Assembly: GCA_038087875.1 (NCBI GenBank)
Contig: CM075988.1
Coordinates: forward strand, 11,286,001 to 11,350,000
Direction of reading: 5' to 3'
Origin: Malacoraja senta
Lineage: Eukaryota
DNA: 64,000 bases
The stretch's first letter is position 1. Each line of letters begins with the position of its first letter. The position numbers were made by a program, and so were the translations under genes. Shown here piece by piece: positions 9,030-62,992 of this stretch. A model generated the notes under the pieces. It was not told the origin of the DNA and did no database searches. It saw only the letters and a program-made list of their open reading frames with translations.

Positions 9030-9842
9030 TGGGTGTGGCCACACCAGTACTCATGCACACTTGTCACCGGCTCGCTAGGGAATTTGTGTGTGTCCCCCCC
9101 CCCCCCCCATGTTTTAAAGTGATTTACTATGGCTCCCATCTGTCCCCGTGGCTGGGGTGGGGGGTGAATCACCAGGTGTGGGTGTCGGAGGTGAATCACC
9201 GTGTGTGTGGGTTGTGGGTCGGGGGGTGAATCACCCTGGTGTGGGGGTTGGGGATCGATCGCCGTCAGTGACTCTGGGTGGGCGGAGGGACCAACCTGTC
9301 CCACACCTCTGCTCCACCCGACCCACAGCCGTCACAGTGCGGCCGCATGGGGAGACAAGGCGGAGGACGGCCATGGCCGTGGGAGAGTGGGGGCTGTCCC
9401 GAGCGATGCTCTCCTTCGGCCGCTTACAACTTGGTGCTTGGGTTTAGAGTGCCCAGTCACCTATGGCTTGTGTGGGAAAATTACCCCCACCCTCCCGTCT
9501 CCACCGGCCAGTGATGTGATGGACGCGGGAGTCTGGACCAATCGCTGACAAGTCCCGCCCCCTCCCCCCCCCCCCGCGACGTCATGTCCATTATTTGGCT
9601 TTTCGGCAGAGCGGCCTTTCGGTGAGTTGTCTTGTAGGCGATGCAGCCTTTCGGTAAGTTGGTGTTTCGGCATAGCGGCCTTTCGGTGAGTTTGCTTTTA
9701 GGCATCCCACCCTTTCGGTTAGTTGGCTTTTCGGCTTTGTACGCTTTCGGTTATTTGGCGTTTTGGCTTTGTTTCCATTCGGTTATTTGGCTTCCACTTC
9801 TTTGCTTCGGCTTCTCGTCCTTCGACGCCACGTCCGGGCACC
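9030..9842. mobile_element. GC/CpG-rich composite insert, probably a DNA-transposon remnant with periodic subterminal repeats
   Basis: Sharp GC increase; three GGTGAATCACC palindromes; 16-bp periodic ttcgg array 9601-9785; ends gtccgggcacc. Confidence 0.5.
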
Positions 9843-13131: not shown

Positions 13132-13900
13132 TAGAAACATAGAAACATAGAAACATAGAAAATAGGTGCAGGAGTAGGCCATTCGGCCCTTCGAGCCTGC
13201 ACCACCATTTGATATGATCATGGCTGATCATCCAACTCAGTATCCCATCCCTGCCTTCTCTCCATACCCCCTGATCCCTTTAGCCACAAGGGCCACATCT
13301 AACTCCCTCTTAATTATAGCCAATGAACTGGCCTCAACTACCTTCTGTGGCAGAGAATTCCACAGATTCACCACTCTGTGTAAAAAATGATTTCCTCATC
13401 TCGGTCCTAAAAGTCTTCCCTCTTATCCATAAACTGTGACCCCTAGTTCTGGACTTCCCCAACATCGGGAATAATCTTCCTGCATCTAGCCTGTCCAACC
13501 CCTTAAGAATTTTGTAAGTTTCTATAAGATCCCCCCTCAGTCTTCTGAATTCCAACGTGTACAAGCCGAGTCTATCCAGTCTTTCCTCATATGAAAGTCC
13601 TGCCATCCCAGGAATCAGTCTGGTGAACCTTCTCTGTACTCCCTCTATGGCAAGAATGTCTTTCCTCAGATTAGGAGACCAAAACTGTACGCAATACTCC
13701 AGGTGTGGTCTCACCATGACCCTGTACAACTGCAGTAGAACCTCCCTGCTCTTATACTCAAATCCTTTTGCTATGAATGCTAACATACCATTTGCTTTCT
13801 TCACTGCCTGCTGCACCTGCATTCCTACTTTCAATGACTGGTGTACCATGACACCTAGGTCTCGTTGCATCTCCCCTTTTCCTAATCGGCCACCATTCAG
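13132..13900 (-). mobile_element. CR1/HER1-like LINE ORF2 C-terminus and 3' UTR
   Basis: ORF 13334-13870 QRDLGV...VRPHLEYCVQFWSP...RRLRGDLIETYKI; (ctatgttt)n tail. Confidence 0.95.
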
Positions 13901-13954
13901 AGAAACAGATTGGTATTCAGATATACATGTACTATTACATGTCTTAAGAAAAGT

Positions 13955-14225
13955 TCCGACCTGAAACTTCGCTTATCCAGGCTCTCCTGGAATGCTGCCA
14001 TAGAGATCCATAGAGTTACTCCAATGGATCTTGTGTCTATTGTGAAGAAAGGAACTGCAGATGCTGTATTTTCCAAAGATGGACACAAAGTGCTGGAGTA
14101 ACTCAGCGGGTCAGGCAGCATCTCTGGAGAAAAGAAATAGGCGATGTTTCAGGTCAGAACCCTTCTTCTGACTAGACTGAAGAAGGTTTTCAACCCAAAA
14201 CATCACCTATTCCTTTTCTCACCTA
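13955..14225. mobile_element. Cluster of Penelope-derived short elements
   Basis: Repeated arms gctggagtaactcagcgggtcaggcagcatctctggag and ctgaagaagg...aaacatcacc in both orientations. Confidence 0.7.
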
Positions 14226-16849: not shown

Positions 16850-17690
16850 CGATGAGTCAGAGTGTAGGAGGAAATCGATTACCTGATTGGTGTCAGAATC
16901 CAACTCTTAACGTGAGCTTGATTAAGGAGCTGATTGTTGACTTTGGGACGGTCCATGCACCTGGCTTTATCAGTGGAACAGCGGTGGAGTCAACAGCTTT
17001 GAGATTCAGGGTGTGCACATCTTTGAAGACCTGATAGACACAAAATGCTATAGGAAAGGGTGATATTTCAGGCCAAGACACTTCTTCAGAAGGGTCTCGA
17101 CCCAAAACATCACCCATTCCTTCTCTCCAGAGATACTGCCTGTCCCTCTGAGTTACTCCAGCATTTTGTGTCTATCTTCGATTTAAACCAGCATCTGCAG
17201 TTTTTTCCTACACACTCTTTGAAGACCTGTCCTGGGCCAAGCACATCGATGCAAAAACAAATAAAACTCATCAATGCCCTGACTTCCTCAGATGTTTGAG
17301 GAGGTTTGGCATGTCGCCGAACACCCAATTGAACCTTTAGAGTCATACTGTAGAGAGTATACTGACTGATTGCCTCATGGCCTGGTTCAGTAACTCGGAT
17401 GCCCAGGAGCAAAGGAGGCTGGAGGAAATGGTCAACATTGCCCGGTCCATCATGGTTATTGCCTTCCCCTTCATCAATGACATCTACAGGAAGCAATGCC
17501 TCAATCAGGCAGCCGATATCATCAAAGACTCACACAACCTGGGCCACACCCTCATCTCACTGCTACCACCCGGAGAAAGGTTCAGCAGTCTGAGAACCAT
17601 TACCTCCAGGTTCAGGAACAGTTTTTTCCCAGCAACTTTCAGTTTTGTGAACTTCACTGCACAACTCCAACCACAACTCCACCTCAACAG
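16850..17690 (+). mobile_element. Rex1/Babar-like LINE RT C-terminal fragment (interrupted)
   Basis: WCQN..LNVS..KELIVDF; ORF 17377 AWFSN...CLNQAADIIKDSHNLGH.L..LLPPGERF...RFRNSFFP. Confidence 0.85.
17034..17215. mobile_element. Palindromic Penelope-derived element with 14-bp TSD
   Basis: TCTTTGAAGACCTG at 17020-17033 and 17216-17229; removing the insert restores contiguous Rex1 sequence. Confidence 0.85.
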
Positions 17691-20619: not shown

Positions 20620-21860
20620 GAGAAACATAGAAAAACAGGCTCGGGAGTAGGCCATTTGGCCCTTCTAGCCAGCACCACTATGCAATATGATCATGGCTGA
20701 TCATCTAAAATCAGTACCCCATCCCTGCTTTTTCCCCATATCCCTTGATTCCTTCAGCCCTGAGAGCTAAATATAGCTCTCTCTTGAAAACATCCAGTGA
20801 AATGGCTTTCTGTGGCAGAGAATTACACAAATTCACAACTCTTTGGGTGAAAAAAAAATCCTCATCTCAGTCCTAAATGACCTACCCCTTATTCTTAAAC
20901 TGTGACCCCTGGTTCTGGACTCCCCCAACAACGGGAACATTTTTTCTGCATCTAGCCTGTCCAATCCCTTAAGAATGTTATATGTTTCTATAAGAAACCC
21001 TCTCATCCTTCTAAATTCCAGTGAATACAAGCCCAGTCGACCCATTCTTTCATCATTTGTCAGTCCCGCCATTCCAGGAATTATCCTGGTGAACCTCGCT
21101 GCACTCCCTCAATAGCAATAATCTCCTTCCTCAAATTAGGAGACCAAAATTGCACAGAATACTCCAGTGCAGTCTCACCAGGGCCCTGTACAACTGCAGT
21201 AGGACCTCCTTGCTTCTAAACTCAAATCCTCTCGCAATAAAGGCAAACCTGCCATTAGCTTTCTTCACTGCCTGCTGTACCTGCTTGCTTACTTTCAGTG
21301 ACTGATGCACAAGCATACCATGGTCTCGTTGCACCTCCCCTTTTCCTAATCTGACACCATTCAGTTAATAATCTGCCTTCCTGTGCTTGTGTGTCATTCT
21401 TAATTGTCATTGTAAGCCATGTTGTCACTTGTCTATTAAACTTTTTCATTCATTCTTTATTCATCTGCCTTCCTGTTCTTGGCACCAAAGTGAACCTCAC
21501 ATTTATCCACATTATACTGCATCTGCCATGCATCTGCCCACTCACCCAATCTATCCAATCCTGGGTGGATTGGATAGATTGCAGTCTCATAGCATCCTCA
21601 TCGCAGCCCACACTGCCACGCAGCTTTGTGTCAACCGCAAACATGGAGATGTCACATTTAATTCCCTCGTCTAAATCGTTAATATATATTGTAAATAACT
21701 GGGGTCCCAGCACTGAGCCTTGCGGCAACCCACTAGTCACTGCCTGCCATTCTGAAAAGGACCCGTTAATTCCTACTCTTTGCGTCCTGTCTGCCAACCA
21801 GTTCTCTATCCATGTCAATAACATACCCCCAATACCATGTAATGCTCTGTTCTTCATTAT
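20620..21860 (-). mobile_element. CR1/HER1-like LINE RT fragment (frameshifted pseudogene)
   Basis: ORFs with [13 protein letters not shown]...[23 protein letters not shown]...FAVDTK and RRMRG.LIETY; CR1 tail. Confidence 0.93.
21385..21462 (+). mobile_element. 78-bp truncated retro-insertion with (TTCA)n-like tail inside CR1
   Basis: ATCTGCCTTCCTGT duplicated at 21371-21384 and 21463-21476; attaaa then ttcattcatt. Confidence 0.7.
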
Positions 21861-22003
21861 CTAGCTCATTAATCATGAGCTCTTCCCCATTCCTTTTCCG
21901 GTGTTTCTCCTGCTTGCCTGAATGACAACACAGGGTAGCGAGTTCCATGTACTTGGCACTCCAATGGTAAAGGAGGATTTTTGATTTCTGTCGTTTCAGG
22001 CTG

Positions 22004-22625
22004 AGATAGATACAAAATGCTGGAGTAACTCAGAGGGTCAGACAGCATCTCTGGAGAAAAGGAATAGGTGATGTTTCGGGTCGAGACCCTTCTTCAGACT
22101 CTTGACCCAAAACGTTACCTATTCCTTTTCTCCAGAGATCTTGTCTGACCCGCTGAGTTACTCCAGCTATTTATATCTAACCGGTTTCAACCAACATCTG
22201 CAGTTCCTTCCTACTCGTTTCAGGCTGGGACCCTTCTTCTTGAAGCTGTCTGAAAAAGGGTCCCAGCCCAAAATAGCTCCTATACATGTTTTCCAGAGAT
22301 GCTGCCTGACCTGCTGAGCTACTCCAACAATTTGTGTGTTAGTATGCTGGCCAAAGCAGGACATCATTGTCATCACTTGACGTTGATGCATACTCCTTTG
22401 TTAATAAAATCTTCTGATTCAGCAAAATGAATCTCATATTGATTTGCTTTCCAGGTAAACCTTGTAGCCTGTGTTATATGTTTAAGAAAGAACTGCAGAT
22501 GCTGGAAAAATTGAAGGTAGACAAAAATGCTGGAGGAACTCTGCTGGTCTCGACCCGAAACGTCGCCTATTCCTTCTCTCCGTACATGCTGCCTCACCTG
22601 CTGAGTTCCTCCAGCATTTATGTCA
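22004..22625. mobile_element. Nested or adjacent palindromic Penelope-derived elements
   Basis: Inverted arms; TCGTTTCAGGCTG duplicated at 21991-22003 and 22215-22227; another copy at about 22480-22625. Confidence 0.75.
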
Positions 22626-22742
22626 GCCTGTGTCATATGATTCCTGCTTAGTTCAGAGACTCTCTTTGAGGATTTCAAAGTGATCTATTCTTATCAAAAG
22701 CTTGCATACTGAACTTTATAGATTGTTGCCGTAAAGCATGAT

Positions 22743-25153: not shown

Positions 25154-25564
25154 GAGACCAAGCACAGGCTTGGCGATCGTTTCGCCCAACACCTCCGTTC
25201 AGTTCGCATTAACCAACCTGATCTCCCGGTGGTTCAGCACTTCAACTCCCCCTCCCATTCTGAATCCGACCTTTCTGTCCTGGACCTCCTCCATAGCCAG
25301 AGTGAGTCCCATCGCTTGGGTAGTTTTCACCACAGTGGTATGAACATTGACTTCTCCAATTTCAGGTAGTCCATGCTTTCTCCCTCCTTCCCCTCCCCTA
25401 CCCAGCTCTCCCACAGCCTACTGTCTCCGCCTCTTCCTTTCTTCTTCCCACCCCCCCCACCCCCACATCAGTCTGAAGAAGGGTCTCGACCCGAAACATC
25501 ACCTATTTCTTCGCTCCATAGATGCTGCCTCAGCCGCTGAGTTTCTCCAGCATTTTTGTCTACC
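25154..25564 (+). mobile_element. Penelope-like element 3' fragment (GIY-YIG end and terminal repeat)
   Basis: ETKHRLGDRFAQHLRSV...HFNSPSHS...GMNIDF; TSD ACCAATTATTT at 25143-25153 and 25565-25575. Confidence 0.88.
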
Positions 25565-31650: not shown

Positions 31651-31924
31651 ACAGGAATCCTCAGAAACTGCAATCCATATTGGGCCATGCATCAATCTTA
31701 AACACAGCGGAACAAGTATTGAAGGATGTAATGTAAATTTTGAACTTGGAATGTAAACCCAACAAAAATGCAACAAATAGCATTAAAGGCAGATATAATT
31801 TAGCATTAATTAATTGGTTTTAATTGAAAAAATGCTATTCAGCAGCAAATATATCCCAAATCCTGATGCAGGGCATCAACCCAAAATGTTGACACTCCCG
31901 TTTTCCCTTCAACATCCAGGTTTC

Positions 31925-34100: not shown

Positions 34101-35049
34101 AAGAAATAAGTTGGTTGAACAAAAAAGAATATGAATATGTTGTTCCCTTGTGGGATAAAGCCTATCCTCAGATGGGAAATGTTAGGAAGGTTTCTAATTA
34201 GTATATTTTTCTTCCTAATGTTGACTCTCCAACTTGTATTTTCCACTATTCCAAACCATTCAAAAACAACTGTGTGAGTTTCGAGAGTATTTTAACTGCC
34301 TTCCTGAGCAATACCAATGAAGACACATAATGCTGGAGTAACTCAGTAGGTCAGGCAGCATCCCTGGAGAACATGGATGGTAATCTTTCTGGTTGGAACC
34401 CTTCTTCAGATTCTGACCATATTTAATTCTACCCATATTTGACACAGAAATATTTGAATGCATTGTTGCCGAATTCCTTGACCTTATTGCCCTATAACTT
34501 ATATCACAGACACATATTTTTGAATCTATGCTTTTGGATGTTGCTAGTTAAAGTGAATTTAACGAGTTTAGAATGACTTCGATTTTAAATTAAATCTACA
34601 GCATGGAAACAGGCCCTTCGGCCCATTAAGTCCACACTGATTATCGATCATCCATATACACTAGTTGTGTGTTATTCTCAATTTTGTATCCACTCCTAAC
34701 ACATTAGGAGCAATTTTGCAGAGGGCAACCAGCCTACAAATCGTATCAAAATGTAAAGCATCAGGCATAGAATGAATAATTCTCACACATTCTATGTTTA
34801 TTCATAAAAATATTTTTTGTTAGAAGATAGGTAAAAATAATGTTGATGATACAAGTTCTTGCAGATGCTGGAATCTTGAGCAAAACTGAGTGCTGAAGTA
34901 ATTCAGTGGGTCAGGTAGCATCTGCAGAGGGAATGGATAGGTGGTGTTTCAGGTCTGAAGAAAGACCTCAACCTGGAACATCAGCTATCCGTTCACTCCA
35001 CAGATGCTGCTTGACCTGCTGAGTTGTTCCGGTATTCTTGCATGAGCAG

Positions 35050-35318: not shown

Positions 35319-36767
35319 TGATACTTTATGTTTTGCACAAAATTCATATTGCAAGATCCCCTTGATAATTAACTGTGGGGATAGTTTAGTTTAGTTTATT
35401 GTCGCGTGTATCGAGGTACAGTAAAAGGTTTTTGTGGCGTGCCAACCAGAAAGACAATAGAGGGCGGACTGGTAATAGATACATAAGAGGCTGTATATGC
35501 TAGAATCTGGAAACAAAAAGTAAACTGTTGAGAGAACTCAACGGGTCAAGCAGCATCTTTGGAGGCAAAAGGGATGTGTCGACATTTCAGGCTAAGATCA
35601 TGCATCAGGACTAGTGATATGTTGGCTGTAGAACGGCAATTTTTATTAACTTCTATTAATTTGATTTGTCTGATGATTAAAAACCCAGCTAGTCATGGTT
35701 GTTTCAACATTCCCAATTAATTAATGGTAAATTCACCGTTAATGTTTGTTGCATTTTAGCTGCTTTACATTCCCAGTTTGAAGCCCGCATTACATTCGAG
35801 TTTGAAACCCAAATAGATCTTGAGTATAGTTCATCAGAGAATAGAAACATAGCTAATATTTGGCATTTTCATTGGTGGGTTGGGGTGGAGAGAGTTGACA
35901 GAAGGGTCCCAAACCAAAATGTCACCTATTCATGGTCTCCAGAGATGCTGCCTGAACTGATGAGTTACTCCTGCACTTTGTATCTATTTTTGTTAGCCAG
36001 CATTTGCAGTTCATTGTTTCTCCATCAATACTTGTTCTGTTGTGTTTAAGATTTATACTTGAACTAATATGAGTTGTGGTTTCGAAGGACAGTGTTGAAT
36101 ATGATCCTGAGGATTCTGATTATTAACGAATCTTTGACATCAGAAAGGGCAACCACATGTTATTTTTTGTTGGTGTGTCGGAGGTGGAGAGAGTTATCAG
36201 TTTCAAATTCCTGGGTGTTAACATCTCAGATGACCTGTCCTGGGCCCAACTGTTTTCTTAAAGGTTTTGCATATCCCTTTCATGATCTTGTGTAACATAG
36301 ATATATTGTACATAAATTATACATAATATTAGTTTTGTGTGTTGTCTGAGTCTATGTGTCTGATGCTGCTGCAAGATTTCCAACGTCCCTTTACCTCACT
36401 GTCCTTGTGCACAGGGAAATGAATCTGACTTGATTATCTCTCGAAAACATGAACATATAAAACATGAAAATATAACGACATATCATCACTGGAATGCAGG
36501 AAAATGGTTCATGTATTCGATTTATAAACCGCAGAAGGAGGCTACATCGACCATTAGACATGTGTACTCTCTTTGAAAGTCCTGTGTTATTTATCAGATC
36601 GCAGCTTTTTATTATAAACTCGGAGAACTATTTGACCTCTTACATCCATGAAAGAAAGTCTATCCTGCCTCAAGCCACCTTCCAGCTATTCGTCTGTAGC
36701 CCTGTGGCTCACAATTCTTCTAGTAAATATCCAAGAATAAAGGTATTCAAATATCCCTTTTCCCTGT

Positions 36768-37183: not shown

Positions 37184-37936
37184 ATCTTCTTCTTCTTGCG
37201 AATGAAACATAAATAAACCAAAGGAATAGTTAGATCTCAAGTCGTGTGTTGAGCAGCCAGGTTGTTGTCTCTGCGTCAATGTCTGCCAGGCCCTGAGCTC
37301 CATTTGGTGGGTGGTAGAGCGGACACCCAGAGATGACATGGTTGGCTGTCTGTTGTTCCGCTCCGCATTCACAGGTTGGGCTCTGGCGGAGTCCCCATCT
37401 CCACTTGCTGGCATTGAAACGACCAACTCCAGTATGAAGTCTGTTGAGCTTCACCCATGTTCCACTGAGGAGGTCAGACCCTGGACAGCTTTTATCTCGT
37501 GAAGAGATGTAGCTGTGTAATGGAGATGAGGTTGCCTTCCACTCCTGTGACCACTTGGTGGCTATCCAGTGTGCTTTTGTCTCAGTTGGCTGGATGGATG
37601 CAAGGAGTTGTTTTCCATGTAGAGCAAAGGGGTGACGGGACTTTAGTCGGGGTGGCCTCTGCTCTCTGCTGATAGCCTGATGGAGGAGGTGATCTGGGTC
37701 CATGGCACGACGAGATAGTGCCAGAGTTGCTGCTTGCCTTCGGATCCCTGCAGGCAGATTGCCTGCAAGTGTAGGGAGCTCCTCGACTGGAGTAGGTTGA
37801 AGGCACGCAGTGATTGTTCGCAAGGTGCTGTTCAAGCTCGTGTCTGCCAGGCTAGTGTGTCTGCTTCTACTCCATACGGGTGCGCAGTACTCAGCTGGAG
37901 CATACATAATAGCTAAGGCAGAGGTGCGAAGCGTTT
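37184..37936 (-). mobile_element. Vingi/Ingi-like non-LTR retrotransposon, 5'-truncated
   Basis: TLRTSALAIMYAPAEYCAPVW...LNRLHTGVGR...CECGAEQQTANHVISGCP; 3' end CATTCGC(AAG)n; AGAATGT at 37177-37183 and 37937-37943. Confidence 0.8.
37230..37907 (-). pseudogene. C-terminal part of a Vingi-like RT polyprotein (post-RT region and Cys/His knuckle)
   Basis: 225-aa open frame from the ORF track; lacks the RT core and endonuclease, so cannot be autonomous. Confidence 0.8.
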
Positions 37937-45389: not shown

Positions 45390-47850
45390 CTTCAGGGAAC
45401 TCAAGGTAAAGGAACCGCTGGGAGGTAGTGACCATAATATTGATAAGTTTATCTGCAATTTGAGAGGGAGAAGGTTAATTCAGAAGTGTCAGTGTTGCAG
45501 TTGAACAAAGGAGACTATGAAGGCATGAGAGAGGAGCAGGCCAAGGTGGACTGGAAAAGGATCCTAGCAGGAATGACGGTGGAACAGCAATGGCAGGAAT
45601 ATCTGGGCATAATCCAGAAGATGCAGGTTCATTTCATTCCAAAGTGGAAGAAAGATTCTAAGGGGAGTAAGAGGCAACCGTGGCTGACAAGGGAAGTTCG
45701 GGATGGAATAAAACTGAAAGAAAAGGTATATAACATAGCAAAGAGTAGTGGGAAGCCAGAAGATTGAGAAACTTTCAAAGGACAACAGAAGGTAACAAAC
45801 AGGGCAATACAGGGTGAAAAGATGAAGTAGGAGGGTAAGCTGGCTAAGAATATTAAGAAGGATAGTAAAAGATTATTTAGGTATGTTAAGAGAAAATAGA
45901 CAAATGTGGGTCGCTTGAAGGCAGAAAGGTGAAATTAATATGGGGAACAAGGAAATGGCAGTAGAGTTGAAAAAGTACTTTGTTTCTGCCCACTAAGGAA
46001 GACACAAACAATCTCCCAGATGTACTAGAGGACAGAGGATCTAGGGAGATAGAGGAACTGAAATAAATTTCCATCAAGCGAGAAATAGTATTGGGTAGAC
46101 TGATGGGACTGAAGGCTGATAAATCCCCAGGGCCTGATGGTCTGCATCCCAGGGTACTCAAGGAGGTGGTTCCAGAAATTGTGGATGCATTGGTGATCAT
46201 TTTACAATGTTCTATAGATTCAGGATCAGTTCCTGTGGATTGGAGGGTAGCTAACGTTATCCCACTTTTCAAGGAAGTTTCGAGAGAGAAAACAGCAAAT
46301 TGTAGACCAGCTAACCTAACATCGGTGGTGGGGAAGATGCTGGAGTCAATTATTGAAGAAGTAATAACAGCGCATTTGGATAGCAGTAAGATAATTGGTC
46401 AAATTCAGCATGGATTTATGAAGGGGAAATCCTGCATGACTAATCTTCTGGAATATTTTGAGGATGTGACAAGTAAAATGGATGAAGCAGAGCCAGTAAA
46501 TGTAGTGTATCTGGACTTTCAGAAAGTCTTTGATAAGGTCCCACACAGGAGATTAGTGGGCAAAATTAGAGCACATAATATTGGGGGTAGGGTATTGACA
46601 TGGATAGAGAATTGGTTGGTAGACAGGATACAAAGAGTAGGAATAAACGTGTTCCTGTCCCAAAAAGGGAAGTGCAACGAGACCTGTGTGTCCTTGTACA
46701 CCAGTCACTGAAAGTAAACATGCAGTTTTGGTCTCCTAAATTAAGGAAGGACATCCTTGCTATTGTGGCAGTGCAGAGTAGGTTCACAAGGTTAATCCCC
46801 GGGATGGCGGGGCTGTCATATGAGGAAAGTTTGGAAAGACTGGGCTTTTATTCACTGGAATTTAGAAGGATGAGAGGGCACCTTATAGAAACATGTAAAA
46901 TTATAAAAGAACTGGACAAGCTAGATGCAAGAAAATGTTCCCAATGTTGGGGGAGTCCCGGAACCAGGGGCCACAGTCTAAGAATTAAGGGGAGGCCATT
47001 TAAAACTGAGATTTAAAAAATCTTTTTCACCCAGAGAGTTGTGAATTTGTGGAATTCTCTGCCACTTAAGGCAGTAGAGGTCAATTCACTGGATTAATTT
47101 AATAGAGAGTTAAAGGCCTGTCTCACGAGTCTGCGGTCATTGGCGGCGAAACGGGAAGAATCTGCCGCCATAGACCGCGCACTCATGAGAACGCACAATT
47201 CCGGGGCCGTGCGGCGGTGTTCCCAACACCGCACGGTGCTAAAATAAAACCTACACTGTTGAAAACTATATTCTTACCGCACAACCTCCACCAGTGATGC
47301 ACGAGTGCGGCACGGCCACCCGCACGGGCCGCCGCCAGTGTGGCTCGAGCGCCGTGTGTCAAACTTCCACTGCCACAGCCTCCGCCAGTGAGGCACGTGT
47401 GCGGCACGGCCGCAGGCACAGCCACCGCTACAGCGCCGCGATCAGGACGGCCGCCGCCACAGCCGCCGCTCGTGAGTCACGTGCGGCGGGCCGACGTCAT
47501 CGCAGTCGGCCCGCCCTTTTTTTTTACTTACCGCAAGCACGTGGGACCAGCCGTATTTGAATTACTCGGCCCCCGCGCAGCATCCGTGCGGCGCTCCTGT
47601 GGATAGGCTCGGCGCTCTCGCCGTTGCCGTGCGGTCCCCTCTACCGGCGATGCCGCGCTTCACCGCCGATGACCGCAAACAGGTAAGACAGAGCCTTTAG
47701 ATAGAGCTCTTGGGGCTTGCGGAATCATGGGATATGGGGGAGAAGGCAGGCACGGGTTACTGATTATGGATGATCAGCCATGATCATAATGAATGGCAGT
47801 GTTGGCTCAAAGGGTCAAATGGCCTCTTCTTGCATCCATGTTTCTATGTT
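45390..47850 (+). mobile_element. CR1/HER1-like LINE ORF2 pseudogene with internal deletions and a MITE insertion
   Basis: KSPGPDGLHPRVLKE, WRVANVIPLFK, QHGFMKGKSCMTNL, VYLDFQKVFDKVPH; stops and frameshifts; (ctatgttt) tail at about 47850. Confidence 0.95.
47113..47696. mobile_element. GC-rich Harbinger-like MITE inside CR1
   Basis: Imperfect TIRs aaggcctgtctcac / gtaagacagagcct, subterminal tgcggtcattggcggcgaa / ttcaccgccgatgaccgca; TTA at 47110-47112 and 47697-47699. Confidence 0.85.
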
Positions 47851-48230: not shown

Positions 48231-48904
48231 GAGTATTTTTAGTTTAATAGTTATATTCTCTTTCCCTAGTTGGATATTCATGGTATAATTTCAAAAGATA
48301 TATTCCATTGGTGAGTTTCTGGAGCACCCGCTGAGTTTCTCCAGCATTTTTGTGTACCTTCCATTGGTCTGTTTGAATACAGAGTTAAGTTAACATACAA
48401 ATGTGTAATTTATTCATCGCCAGCCTGTTAATATTTATTATTATAGTTGCGTCGATCACCAGATATTTTGCACAAAGATCCAAATTGCATCCCTCACTGA
48501 AGAATATTCCACGTCATTCTGCTCTTTGTTAATGTGAATCTAACCATTAATGTTTCAAAGGTGGTTTTATGAATAAAATTATGCCTCCTTCGACATTAGT
48601 GCTTTTGTTCAGGATTTGAAAACTGGTGAATGTAGCTTAATCAGGAAGCCAATGAGAGAAGTTACATGTCCTTGGGTAATGACACTTTGTGCAGAATCGA
48701 GCAATGCCTTAGAATTTTGCATTCAGTTTGCACATAATCCAATAAGAATAGTGCTCGTTGAAATAAAACTATAATTAGGGATGGAAAATGAAAAGGTGTC
48801 ATGGTGAGAATAACTTGGATGAAAATGCCTTAATATGACTCATTCAGAGGACAATGAGATTCTACTTTTGGCAATGTTTATTCTTACTAATGAAGTAAGG
48901 CATG

Positions 48905-49090
48905 AAGTACTGGAGTAACTCAGTGGGCCATGCAGCATCTCTGGAGGACATGGATAGTTGACATTTTGGGTTGGGGCACTTCTTCAGACATGAAGATAGA
49001 CACAGAATGCTGGAGTAACTCAGCAGGACAGCAGCATCTCTGGAGATAAGGAATGGGTGACGTTTCGGGTCGAGACCCTTCTTCAGATTT
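48905..49090 (-). mobile_element. Tandem Penelope-derived terminal repeats
   Basis: Two head-to-tail copies; the second has CTGAAGAAGGGTCTCGACCCGAAACGTCACC on minus (49056-49086). Confidence 0.8.
49056..49086 (-). ncRNA. Minimal hammerhead-ribozyme-like motif
   Basis: CUGAAGA, extra A, stem II GGGUC/GACCC, GAAAC, GUC triplet; stem I weak. Confidence 0.5.
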
Positions 49091-49419
49091 TCGTTCTACA
49101 TCACCCTCTTCAGACACATTGTGCCTTATTTCATTAGCAAGAATAAATATTACCTCGGGACAGTCTAATTGTCTTCTGAGTCAAATTAAGGCATTTGAAC
49201 AAAGGGCCCCCACCTGAAGTCACCTATCCCTGTCCTCCAGAGATGCTGCCTGACCCGTTGAGTCCTCCAGAGATGCTGCCTGACCTGGCTGATGACACAT
49301 TAAACATTGCTATGTTGAGCTGAGTTGGTTGATTGTAATGGATATTCAGGCTGCTCACAGCATACACAGCTCTGGGTGGGCTATTGACATTGTACACAGA
49401 CCTGTTCAAACATTCCTAT

Positions 49420-53040: not shown

Positions 53041-54211
53041 GATCGCAGTAAAATTTCCATTTTCCACTGTTCCCAAATTTATCCTTAACTTTTGTGCATC
53101 ACTTGCATTTGTGGGTTGTTTTTTTCCGACGCATTTCTTCTGATGGCTCATATTTCTTTCACTTTCACCTTTCAGAAATGTTATTTTTGTACCGTCATTC
53201 AATTATGTAACAAGGGATTTGAGCATTTTCTGCCTGACTATTTGCATCTCCCACTTCTTCTGTTTGACATCTGTGGGTTATTTTAAAATTTTGTTTCTCT
53301 TGGATAAATTTCACTGAATATTAATGATGTCTACCAGGGCACTGATTTTGTCTAAGTTACTCTCTGAGATAGCGTTGACATAGAACGACTCAATTTGGCC
53401 CATCAAGTCTATGGCAGATTACAAAGTGATCCTGTTCTTGCACTTATGTTCCTGTAATGTATTCTCCCTCCATTCCCTTTGATTTCCCTCTACCACTCCA
53501 GAATTCTGCCATTTAGTGCTATTTGCAGCACTGATTAACCTACCAACCCGCATATCTTCCTGACGTGGGAGGAAACCAAAGCAACTCGGGGGGGGAAAAC
53601 AACGGGGAGGGTGTGCAAGCAGAGTGAATGTGCAAACTCCACATAACACCGGATGTCAGGATTGAACCCATGCCACTGCAGTAGTGAGGCAGCAGCTCAA
53701 TTCAATTACAGAACAAGGCTGAGTTAAAACTGGTAGAGGTATAGTTATTTGTCAACCATTTCATTCACAGTGGCGTTGCACTGGCAATTCCATTTCCCCC
53801 ATAATTTGTAGTTCAAGACTATTTGATAATATCTTTGGAAGATGCTAATGCTGCTTTGAAATGTCTGAAATGGCAATTGGATCACATCTCTGAAGTACAC
53901 CTCAGCTATATAAGCAGGCAAAGGCAGTTCAACCCCTCATACTAGCATCGCAGAAGATATTTTACCTCGGCAGCACATTCTTAGGGTCATCCTGTATCCC
54001 TTGCTTTTCTTAATATATTACAAATGTATTATATTTATCTTGAATATACTCAGCAACAGCCTAAATGGCTCTCTGGGGGCAGTGGAATACAAGGGAACAT
54101 AGTGGCACAGCTGGTAGAGGCTCTGTCTTACATCAGGAGAGATCTGCGTTCAGTCCTAACCTTCAATGCTGTTTGGAGCTTGCACGTTCTCTCTGTTAAA
54201 AAAAAGACACG

Positions 54212-55866
54212 TGATTGACTTCCGCTTTCTGAACCCCCACTCCCTCATCTTTACTAAGGACGTTCAATCACTCTATACCTCCATCCCCCACCAGGAAGGC
54301 CTTATAGCCCTCCGTTTCATCCTCGACCGCAGAACCATCCAATTTCCCTCTACCAACACTCAACACTAGTCCTCACACTCAACAACTTCTCCATTGACTC
54401 CGCCCACTTCCTCCAAGTCCAAAGCATATGCCATGGGCACCCGTACGGGCCCCAGCTATGCCTGCCTCTTTGTAGGGTACGTTGAACAATCCATGTTCCA
54501 GGCTAACACTGGCCATATCCCCGAACTCTATCTCTGTTACTTTGATGACTACATCGGTGCTACGTCCTGCACCCTTGCAGAACTCATGGACTTCATCAAC
54601 TTCACCACCAACTTTCATCCTGCGCTCTAGTTTACTTGGACCATCCCCGACTCCTCCCTCCCCTTTCTTGATCTCACAGTCTCCATCAGAAGAAATAGAC
54701 TATTGACTGATGTCTATTACGTACCCACTAACTCCCACAACTATCTCGACTACACTTCTTCCCACCCTGCTTCCTGCAAAGACTCTATCCCCTACTCCCA
54801 ATTCCTCCGTCTACGCCGCATCTGCGCCCAAGATGAGGTGTTCCATACAAGAACATCCGAGATGTCCTAATTCTTTAGGGAATGGGGGTTCCCCTCGCCC
54901 ATCATAGATGAGGCCCTCACTCGTGTATTCTTGGTACCGCACAGCTCTGCCCTTGCTCCCCCTCCCCCTAGTCGCAACAGAGTCCTTACCTTCCACCCCA
55001 TCAGCCATCGCATACAACACATAATCCTCCAAAATTTCCGCCACCTCCAACGGGATCCCACCACTAGCCACATTTTCCCATCTCCACCCCTTTCCACCTT
55101 CCGCAGAGACTGTTCCATCCGCAACTCCCTGGTTAACTCATCACTTCCCACCAAAACCACCTCCTCCCCAGGTACCTTCCTAAGCAACTGCAGAAGATGC
55201 AACACCTGTCGCTATACCTCCTCCCTCGATTCTGTCTAGGGACCCCGACGGTTCTTTCAGGTTAGGGAGAGGTTCACTTACACTTCCTCCAACCTCATCT
55301 ACTGTATCCATTGTTCAGGATGTGGACTCTTATAAATCGCCGAGACCAAACGCAGACAAGTGATTGTTTCGCGGAACACCTTCGCTCAGCCTGCGTGAAC
55401 CAACCTGATCTCCCGGTTGATGGACACTTAAATTCTCCTTCCCATTCTTACACAGACCTTTCTGTCCTCGGTCTCCTCCATTGTCAGAGTGAGGCTAAAC
55501 ACAAATTGGAGGAACAGCATCTCATATTTTGCTTGGGCAGCTTACAGCCCAGTGGTATGAATATTGATTTCTCTCACTTCACGTAGTCCTGGTATTCCCT
55601 CTCTCTCTACCCCTACCCCATCCAAGTTGCAATAGCTTCTCATTTTCACCCTACAATCAGCTGACAATGGGCTTTTTCCTTTATCATCGTTACTTTTTTG
55701 CATATCTTTCATTCATTATTCTTTATCTCTCCACATCACTGTCTATATCTCCCATTTCCCTTGTCCCCAACCAGTCTGAAGAAGGGTCTCGACCTGAAAT
55801 GTCACCCATTCCTTCTCTCCAGAGATGCTGCCTGTCCCGCTGAGTTACTCCAGCTTTTTGTGTCTA
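54212..55866 (+). mobile_element. Penelope-like element, RT and GIY-YIG pseudogene plus terminal repeat
   Basis: KDVQSLYTSIPHQEG, AMGTRTGPSYACLFVGYVE, YFDDYIG, FLDL, CRRCNTC, NLIYCIHC; stops and frameshifts; ends in ctgaagaagggtctcgacctgaaatgtcacc arm. Confidence 0.93.
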
Positions 55867-56590
55867 AGCAAGTGATACGTGGATGCAGGTGAAGGGAAGA
55901 GGGGTTGATTGGCAGATGGGTGGACAAAGGTCAGAGATGAAAAGAAGACAAATGGGTTTGAGAGTAGGAGAGAAGACGAATGAAATGTGAAGCCAGAGGA
56001 AGGAAAAGAGGTGGAAGTGCAAAAGGGAGGTGGAATACTGATGGGAAATTGGTGCACATCCAGGTGGGTCACAGGGAAGAGAGAGGGGGAAAGAAGAGGT
56101 GTTGTGGTATAATAAATAACCAACAACACCCCTGCCTTTGCTCCCCCCTCTCTTTCCCATGCCCTACCCGAATGCGCACCCATTTCTCCCTCCATCCTGC
56201 CTCACTTTCCCCTTACTCCCCTTCCCCTTCCACCTGTGTCCCTTCCTCTGGCTTCACATTTTGTGCCTCTTCTCTCCTTATCTCACAGCCTTTTTATCTC
56301 GTTTTCTGCTCTGGTCTTTGTCCATCACACCTGCCAGCAAATCCATCACACCTGCATCTACTTATCACTTGCTTGACTTTGTCCTACCTTCACCTCTCTT
56401 CCAGCTTTTTCCTCTGCCCTGCTACAGTCAGTCTGAAGAATGGTCAGTGTGAACTCGTTGGGCTGAGGGGCCTGTTTTCGTGCTGTATCTCTAAGCTAAG
56501 CTAAGGGTCCCGACCCGAAACATCACCTATCAACGTCCTCCAGTGATGCTGCCTGACCCGAAGTTGTTCCTCCAACATCTGCAGTTCCTC
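55867..56590. mobile_element. Inverted pair of pyrimidine-rich Penelope-type 3' regions
   Basis: 55867-56090 is an imperfect reverse complement of about 56140-56375; the plus copy continues into the terminal arm. Confidence 0.65.
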
Positions 56591-60293: not shown

Positions 60294-61307
60294 GGGGTGG
60301 CACTGTGGAGCAGCTGGTAGAGATGCTGCCTCACAGCACCAGAGACATAGAAACATAGAAACATAGAAAGTAGGTGCGAGAGTAGACCACCAGGCCCATC
60401 GAGCCCGCACCGCCATTCGCTCATGGCTGAACACTAAACAGACACCCTTACCCACAAACAGTAGACACAAGACACAGAACACAAGACACTACCCTCCCCT
60501 TTATATCGCTATCACCCCTCTCCACCCCAAGAACCGCGTGATCTCCTGGGGGAGGCAAAAAAACGGATAAAAACCCAGGTCCAATTCGGGAAAAAAATCC
60601 GGGAAATTCCTCTCCGACCCCAATCCAGGCGATCGACACTTGTCCAGGAGATCACTCAGGTCTTACTATACTAACCATACCTAGGTCCATATCCCTGCCC
60701 TCTCCCCGTAGCCCCTTATCCCCTTGGCAGCTAAAAAACCATCTATTTTAGACTTAAATATATTTAATGTTTCTGCTTCCACTGCTCCCTGGGGCAGTGA
60801 ATTCCATAAATTAACCACCCTCTGGGTGAAGAAGTTCTTCCTCATCTCAGTTTTAAAAGAGCCCCCTCTTATTCTACAACTATGTCCCCTAGTTCTAGTT
60901 TCCCCGATCATTGGGAACATCCTCGGTGCATCCACCCGATCAAGGCCCCTCACGATCTTATATGTTTCAATGAGATCGCCTCTCATTCTTCTAAACTCCA
61001 AAGAGTAGAGTTCCAGCCTACTTAACCTTTCCTCATATGTCAATCCCCTCATTGCAGGAATTAATCTTGTAAACCTAGGTTCGATCCTGAACTTGGCTGC
61101 TGCCTGTGTGGAATTTGCACGTTCTCCCTGTGACAATGTGGGTTTCCTATGGTTGTTCCGGTTTCCTCCCACATCCCAAAGACATGGAGTGTGGTAGGTT
61201 AATTATTCTCCATAAATTGCCTCTCATGTGTAGGGAGTGGATGAGATAATGATCAATGGTTGCCATGGGTTGAAGGTCCTGTTTCCCTGTTGTATCTCAA
61301 AACTAAG
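60294..61307 (+). mobile_element. V-SINE split by a CR1 insertion
   Basis: Head 60294-60346 (...cagcaccagagac) resumes at about 61074 (cctaggttcgatcc). Confidence 0.85.
60346..61073 (-). mobile_element. CR1 subfamily with long 3' UTR
   Basis: RFTRLIP...RRMRGDLIETYKI...FFTQRVVNLWNSLP...GIWT, then about 330 bp of UTR and (ctatgttt)n. Confidence 0.93.
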
Positions 61308-62305: not shown

Positions 62306-62339
62306 ATCATGTTGGTCCAGACAGTTATTTTAATAAGAC

Positions 62340-62992
62340 GTTCAAGAAGGAACTGCAGATGCTGGAAAATCGAAGGTAGACAAAAATGCTGGAGAAACTC
62401 AGCGGGTGCGGCAGCATCTATGGAGCGAAGGAAATAGGCAACGTTTCGGGCCAAAACCTTTCTTCAGACTGATGCAGGGTGGGGGGGGGGGGGCGGGAAG
62501 AAGAAAGGAAGAGGAGGAGCCAGAGGGCTGAGGGAGAGCTGAGAAAGGGAGGAGACAGCAAGGGCTACCGGAAATTGGAGAAGTCAATGTTCAGGCCACT
62601 GGGGTGCAGACTGCCCAAGCGGAATAGGAGGTGCTGCTCCTCCAATTTCCAGTGGTGCTCACTCTGGCCATGGAGGAGGCCCAGGACAGAAAGGTCTGAT
62701 TCGGAATGGGAGGGGGAGTTGAAGTGCTGAGCCACAGGGAGATCAGGTTGGTGTTCGGCGAAACGATCGGCAAGCCTACGCTTGGTCTCACCGATGGAGA
62801 TCAGCTGACATTTAGAGCAGTGGATGCAATAGATGAGGTTGGAGGAGGTGCAGGTGAACCTCTGTCGCACCTGGAACGACTGCTTGGGTCCTTGAATGGA
62901 GTCGAGGGGGGAGGTAAAGCGACACGTGTAGCATCTCTTGCGGTTGCAAATGAAAGTACCCGGGGAGGGGGTGGTGCGGGTGGGAAGGGAAG
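62340..62992 (-). mobile_element. Penelope-like element 3' fragment (GIY-YIG)
   Basis: NLIYCIHCSKCQLISIGETKRRLADRFAEH...GLNIDF; terminal arm with ctgaaga...cccgaaacgttgcc. Confidence 0.9.

Follow-up and report, generated by a model that had tools for sequence, protein, structure and literature searches.

The motif at 49086-49056 on the minus strand of the window (the whole 64-kb stretch of DNA analysed here) is, on its sequence, a genuine minimal hammerhead of the Penelope-like element (PLE) type. It probably belongs to the pseudo-LTR of a Neptune/Nematis-type PLE and has spread as truncated end insertions. A PLE carrying a minimal hammerhead is a known arrangement. Going by its letters, we take the motif to be a selected ribozyme in master elements, and we infer that the genomic copies, including the one at 49087 that was flagged by a sequence-only reading, are passive relics; the flagged copy most likely does nothing.

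The motif that carries this assignment is the following.

49056..49086, minus strand: minimal type I hammerhead core (C3-A9, extra A, helix II, GAAA, ACGU, C17)

Read along the minus strand from 49086 to 49056, the order is CTGAAGA, an extra A, GGGT-CTCG-ACCC, GAAAC and GTC, the same letters that the sequence-only reading had parsed as CUGANGA, stem II, GAAA and GUC. Helix III of this core is a palindromic ACGU without a loop, and the cut is predicted between 49059 and 49058. Helix II has 4 bp (GGGU/ACCC) and a 4-nt CUCG loop and was independently predicted by RNAalifold on 16 copies, which replaces the 5-bp stem with a 2-nt loop proposed earlier; a 2-nt hairpin loop is sterically impossible. 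Similarly, the proposed stem I of about 2 bp (gt/ac) describes the family state (GU/AC) but not the flagged copy, where helix I is a single pair. The flagged copy retains the full set of 13 core and helix III bases, and no other copy joins 13/13 of these bases with GUC and 4/4 helix II pairs. The CTGANGA..GAAAC pattern has 10 matches in the window, compared with 0.82 +/- 0.85 in 100 shuffles. The earlier classification as a type I minimal PLE hammerhead agrees with the order and spacing of the core, the extra base, the palindrome and the terminal location. An Rfam scan, which had been suggested as a check, returned 26 weak matches at E<=10, with zero hammerhead models among them; its microRNA-like matches are head-to-head hairpins. 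The folding energy of the unit is nothing unusual, and pattern scans of viral and metagenome contigs gave zero matches.

The hammerhead opens a unit of 93-135 nt for which a profile HMM finds 44 matches in the window and 0 in the reversed window, the matches making up 5.2% of the 64 kb. Units end either in a short form (~93-98 nt) or after an optional tail (to ~130-135 nt), and their copies fall into several subfamilies. Each of the 11 positions listed in the sequence-only reading was read out and all 11 hold family sequence, with 56433/56504 being one copy split by another insertion; the list understates the family (11 positions vs 44 HMM matches). In that copy (56431-56580, plus strand), the CUGAAGAAG stretch is interrupted by a 60-70 nt insertion, which we take to resemble a CR1/SINE 3' end. 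In two old copies CUGA is preceded by an added C and the triplet is followed by an added G, giving one more helix I pair; the extra C-G pair is seen in the copy below and also at 31861-31893 (plus strand).

35522..35610, minus strand: old subfamily copy whose helix I is lengthened to 3 bp by a further C-G pair at its base

Just before the short end lies a conserved hairpin with AUGCUG/CAGCAU arms (48997-49035, minus strand, with equivalents in other copies), a candidate protein-binding or RT-start signal.

Coding sequence of PLE type is present at three places in the window, 54160-55586 (plus), 62990-62568 (minus) and 25154-25366 (plus). In all three fragments, as had been claimed for the ends of the coding Penelope fragments, the stop codon is followed by a pyrimidine-rich UTR of ~100-190 nt closing with CAG and then by the hammerhead unit.

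54160..55586, plus strand: broken PLE ORF with RT motifs, linker and GIY-YIG endonuclease, carrying stops and frameshifts (read in translation)
55587..55866, plus strand: pyrimidine-rich UTR, CAG, then hammerhead unit (C15.2U) with short end
62334..62990, minus strand: 5'-truncated PLE with CX4CxxC linker, GIY-YIG end, UTR, hammerhead (U17, intact core) and long tail
25154..25562, plus strand: 5'-truncated PLE with endonuclease end, UTR and hammerhead unit (G16.2A)

A Pfam search gave zero matches for these fragments, and the GIY-YIG match of P0003, a relative protein to which they are 62-66% identical, is weak (E 0.00046, below the cut-off); the PLE assignment therefore rests on motifs read in translation, namely those of an RT and, C-terminal to it, of a GIY-YIG endonuclease with CCHH. 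Skate and ray gene models, with 59-71% identity, are the best 4 of 9 protein matches, which makes it probable that the window comes from a batoid. P0001, P0002 and P0004, skate/ray gene models with unrelated names, contain the element's endonuclease end, joined in P0001 to DUF4518; these models are probably annotation chimeras and possibly cases of exonisation. Both longer fragments carry a CX4CxxC linker before the endonuclease. Since a CX2-5CxxC linker is reported to mark Neptune and Nematis and to be missing from Penelope/Poseidon (PMC8557442), the element is, by this motif, a Neptune/Nematis-type PLE; the Poseidon clade, our first reading, was dropped on the same ground. No full-length element with two pseudo-LTRs was found within the 64-kb window. 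The three UTRs (25366-25472, 55583-55774 and 62567-62469) all start with G-GTAG at the stop and end in a pyrimidine tract and CAG, and look intron-like, with the 3' end abutting helix I, a position reported for an intron of Drosophila virilis Penelope (PMC4209133). No GT-AG splice joint occurs among the 15 joints listed, out of 774, from the contigs of four sequencing runs, and splicing of the UTR would leave helix I no longer.

The two neighbouring hammerheads at 48905-49090, which the sequence-only reading had described as a tandem with the layout of a dimer, are one copy inserted in an older broken copy.

48991..49087, minus strand: younger PLE terminal unit (profile match), short-end form without tail, with the downstream hairpin
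49088..49106, minus strand: 5' junction, where the young insert has a 9-nt stub and 10 further nt
49107..49116: first copy of the 10-bp target-site duplication, in which the older unit's CTGAAGA box lies
48981..48990: second copy of this duplication
48898..48988, minus strand: decayed unit from a different subfamily, older than the young insert that hit it (G12A, C15.2U, helix II 2/4)
49199..49287, plus strand: oppositely oriented decayed unit with a short internal duplication (profile match)

The 10-bp duplication (48981-48990 and 49107-49116) is exact, and a score of at least 10 was reached by 0 of 300 random controls. The young insert sits inside the core of the older copy, which becomes continuous with its flank once the 116-bp insert is removed. 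The two units are 74% identical to each other, while the young one is 89-91% identical to the copies at 55775, 60182 and 22098. The 9-nt stub in 49088..49106 is able to pair with the ACGUCACCC stretch, from which we infer a remnant of an inverted arm. The unit at 49199..49287 is probably the head-to-head partner of the older copy; no target-site duplication was found for this old pair (48898..48988 plus 49199..49287).

This history leaves very little probability for an active double hammerhead at 48898-49087 that cuts a host or element transcript. The two cores do share a strand and are separated by 99 nt, the first of them is intact, and ACGU can pair with AUGU via one G-U wobble. Neither copy makes a convincing enzyme strand, however: helix I has 1 bp when the enzyme strand comes from 49087, and when it comes from 48988 the core is dead, with G12 lost and helix II reduced to 2/4. 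Furthermore, the predicted probability of an inter-copy helix III is 0.0001, the double-hammerhead fold of the pair scores +11.5 vs -28.0 kcal/mol for the best fold, and the layout itself was produced by insertion.

Head-to-head pairs of terminal units are seen at about 10 places in the window, four of them bounded by clear duplications.

17020..17229: head-to-head terminal pair, 14-bp duplication, one long and one short arm
21991..22227: head-to-head terminal pair, 13-bp duplication, inside helix II/GAAA of an older family copy
22466..22639: head-to-head terminal pair, 15-bp duplication (1 mismatch)
34856..35042: head-to-head terminal pair, 8-bp duplication (at least 8 in 3/300 controls)

Duplications of 8-15 bp flank 5 of the 12 units tested (these four pairs and the young copy 49087) and are not clear in the other 7; counted over pair-type units, 4 of the 10 tested have a clear duplication of their own. 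All four duplication-bounded pairs combine one long and one short arm, and the other pairs include one in which both arms are long and one in which both are short. The head-to-head junctions differ from pair to pair, and a fixed MITE-like hairpin element was rejected on this ground. An older hammerhead was the target in 2 of the 5 duplication-bounded insertions (p 0.024, post hoc). The young copies 26641 and 14041 lie against or within older family copies, with no significant duplication, and are further hints of self-targeting.

The 5' ends of the copies are informative as well. In 17 of 41 matches the copy reaches model column 1, which is both the edge of the model and the hammerhead's first base, and 18 of 23 copies with a CUGA box lack the pyrimidine-rich upstream stretch. 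Among the 41 downstream-anchored copies none starts at columns 29-30, where the cut site lies, and two start at column 31, start positions that are in line with uncleaved RNA as the insertion template. With their 8-15 bp duplications, differing junctions and optional tail, the dispersed copies resemble separate insertions of the PLE end, either 5'-truncated or head-to-head, more than one fixed non-autonomous element. The separate non-autonomous family proposed earlier is doubtful in view of the differing junctions and of the duplications that 4 of the 10 pair-type units tested have of their own, which independent truncated insertions would be expected to show. Random truncation does not account for so sharp a 5' boundary at the first base of the hammerhead.

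In good agreement with the earlier remark that many copies are core-mutated, all 13 core and helix III bases survive in just 2 of 20 whole-core copies (49087 and 62468). G12, the proposed general base of the hammerhead (PMC6155905), is lost in 6 of the 20. The extra A after A9 is kept in 19 and G10.1 in 14, G-C being the commonest closing pair of helix II (10.1-11.1). The ACGT of helix III is intact in 2 of the 20 copies and mostly CpG-decayed in the others; at position 15.2, C is the majority base in the aligned contigs of all four sequencing runs. CG is kept in 11/30 rows at C11.1-G12, in 5/30 at C15.2-G16.2 and in 11/30 at the downstream CpG. Core CpGs therefore decay like the downstream one, as expected of neutral decay, which makes a comparison of core and flank meaningful on subfamily consensuses and not on individual copies. 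Such a comparison, suggested earlier, gave a divided answer on the copies: A13 (29/30 rows), A14 (29/29) and A15.1 (29/30) are kept better than downstream A/T columns (mean 83%), but conservation of at least 90% is also reached by 22 of 59 downstream columns, so that conservation is not specific to the core. The overall figures of 95% for the core vs 85% downstream (permutation p 0.0001) are inflated by the fact that rows reach the CUGA box only if they match it, the internal GAAA box being the fairer test.

The pairing tests are similarly mixed. Covariation, the other check suggested with the sequence-only reading, is not above shuffles on the 22 decayed window copies, with 209 of 500 shuffles reaching the same score. 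The helices are paired in 80% of cells, compared with 7-46% when the structure is slid along the alignment. Helix I, taken as 2 bp, is paired in 75% of cells, with 3 bp in copy 35608 and 1 bp in the flagged copy. For best-case homodimers of three natural copies, the double-hammerhead fold scores +0.1 to +3.4 vs -22 to -34 kcal/mol for alternatives; these modelled scores fit reports that PLE hammerheads have low activity or depend on protein (PMC4209133, PMC11167929).

Contigs of four sequencing runs were aligned on 55250-55900 at 80% likeness, yielding 268,313 and 252,190 contigs for one pair of runs and 26,317 and 21,472 for another pair, presumed to be RNA, counts that give neither copy number nor expression nor cleavage. 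Strand-switch (inverted) joints at the hammerhead start recur in all four runs. Joints that run head to tail, leading from the short end back to where the hammerhead starts, are recurrent too, the top two with 25 and 31 contigs (X1) and 37 and 44 contigs (X5), and fit either true multimers or repeated self-targeting as at 49087. The contigs also hold a second subfamily, in which the loop and flank are changed and the GAAAC-GTC-AC core is the same.

These patterns suggest a mechanism in several steps. The RT-endonuclease of the PLE would cut its target with a stagger of 8-15 nt, and reverse transcription, starting at one of two internal RNA sites, would produce the long and short ends. Reverse transcription would usually stop within ~130 nt, often on both DNA ends, and such an early stop would leave solo or head-to-head terminal copies. 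The template would be mostly uncleaved RNA. In an active master the ribozyme would be under selection and cut after C17 (or U17), only as a dimer held via ACGU and probably only with the help of protein, which the 2-bp helix I makes a probable requirement.

Two other accounts of the family have to be weighed. One is a short non-autonomous RNA of ~95-135 nt, hammerhead plus tail, which is transcribed independently and moved in trans by the PLE protein in the manner of a SINE or retrozyme. Just 3 of the 44 matches are attached to coding sequence, and the clustering of 5' ends at the hammerhead edge keeps this reading alive, as do, from outside the window, the recurrent head-to-tail joints in the contigs of the aligned runs and the proposal of PLE-derived retrozymes for vertebrates, one chondrichthyan included (bioRxiv 10.64898/2026.07.22.740005). 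However, the sole readable head-to-tail pair involves two subfamilies and arose by nested insertion, which yields the same type of joint, a tandem array of the unit is absent within the window, the junctions of the inverted pairs all differ, and the same subfamilies are attached to coding fragments. Moreover, the retrozymes first described carry canonical hammerheads with loop-loop contacts (PMC7229834). We therefore regard this account as unlikely, while giving it real weight.

The other account holds that the likeness to a hammerhead is incidental, the motif being merely a cis-signal that is conserved, or else the beginning of the PLE ORF. The Rfam scan without a hammerhead match, the lack of a covariation signal, the ordinary folding energy and the conservation of downstream blocks speak for it. 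Against it stand the 13 core and helix III bases, the extra base, G10.1-C11.1 and the palindrome, all correctly spaced and located where PLEs have their hammerheads, together with the old subfamily that adds a C-G pair by one base on each side of helix I, and we consider an incidental likeness very improbable. Truncated end insertions of a hammerhead-bearing PLE remain our preferred reading.

This reading adds a cartilaginous-fish, Neptune/Nematis-type example to the link between PLEs and hammerheads, and illustrates that a large share of a genome can be ribozyme-derived relic (here 5.2% of the window). It also calls for caution: two hammerheads that a motif search finds side by side may be nested insertions and not working dimers. 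The many short, duplication-bounded insertions are material for testing the inverted ends and tails of PLEs, whose mechanism is unsettled. More speculatively, a Neptune-type PLE protein of skates and rays may mobilise a discrete RNA of 95-135 nt that begins at the hammerhead start, perhaps with a preference for older hammerheads, an idea that we think rather unlikely to hold. If it did, a ribozyme-headed, self-targeting short element would be among the commonest repeats of skate and ray genomes, the insertions with a long and a short arm head to head would document, on the scale of a genome, how a dimeric PLE protein primes on two strands, and PLE insertion would be open to statistical testing.

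The window holds other repeats and coding remnants. A TTTCGG-rich tandem repeat of 32/64 bp (9595-9791) lies by a GC-rich stretch and a 27/36-bp repeat (9161-9257). A 234-codon open frame with a Cys/His motif at 37230-37934 (minus strand) has zero Pfam matches and, as we take it, resembles the C-terminal part of a LINE ORF2. The stretches 13334-13972, 21450-21860, 46067-47016 and 60681-61202 (all minus strand) are presumably CR1-like LINE reverse transcriptase fragments; 46070-46711 has a Pfam RVT_1 match.

In the portions of the literature available to us the family is undescribed in skates or rays, and preprint tables or repeat libraries may already hold it. Like the non-LTR retrozymes (PMC7229834; bioRxiv 10.64898/2026.07.22.740005), the unit described here is short, non-coding, headed by a type I hammerhead and found in many monomers, and both are related to PLE pseudo-LTRs. 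They differ in that the hammerhead here is minimal and not canonical and the sole head-to-tail pair is a nested insertion; a retrozyme-type tandem with an intact hammerhead in consecutive units was not found in the window, the second unit of the pair being dead and of another subfamily.

A closer parallel is the Poseidon element PAc of Anolis carolinensis (Frangieh et al. 2024, PMC11167929), which shares with the present element a pseudo-LTR hammerhead and two alternative ends that define the tail. As reported there, uncleaved RNA is the insertion substrate of PAc in vitro. The PAc protein has two internal start sites for reverse transcription, both cuts and extends the two strands, and in vitro also severs the junction between its own ORF and pLTR. 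In contrast to PAc, the window element has the CX4CxxC linker that Penelope/Poseidon lack. Head-to-head inverted ends are likewise common to the window insertions, the Penelope insertions of Adineta vaga (PMC3846280) and the PLE layout described in PMC8557442, and these two sources report a 30-40 bp tail on one arm only and duplications of 8-10 bp. Unlike in Adineta vaga, most insertions here consist of two ends alone (~115-210 bp) with no coding sequence between them.

Finally, the minimal hammerheads of metazoan PLEs (PMC4209133) match the present one in consensus, in the lack of a loop 3, in their location in terminal repeats and in occurring mostly as solo copies with some opposite-strand pairs. 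Their reported hallmarks are an extra base after A9, G10.1-C11.1 and the palindrome; the consensus of Cervera and de la Pena consists of CUGANGAH, G..C, GAAAN, the palindrome and NUH, and their Fig. S3 includes 2-bp helices I and U17 (PMC4209133). Cartilaginous fish did not appear in Table S1 of that paper or in its Fig. S3 alignment as consulted. Compared with the hammerheads that it describes, the helices here are at the short extreme (4 bp for helix II and 2 bp for helix I) and the copy density is very high, with 44 matches in 64 kb.
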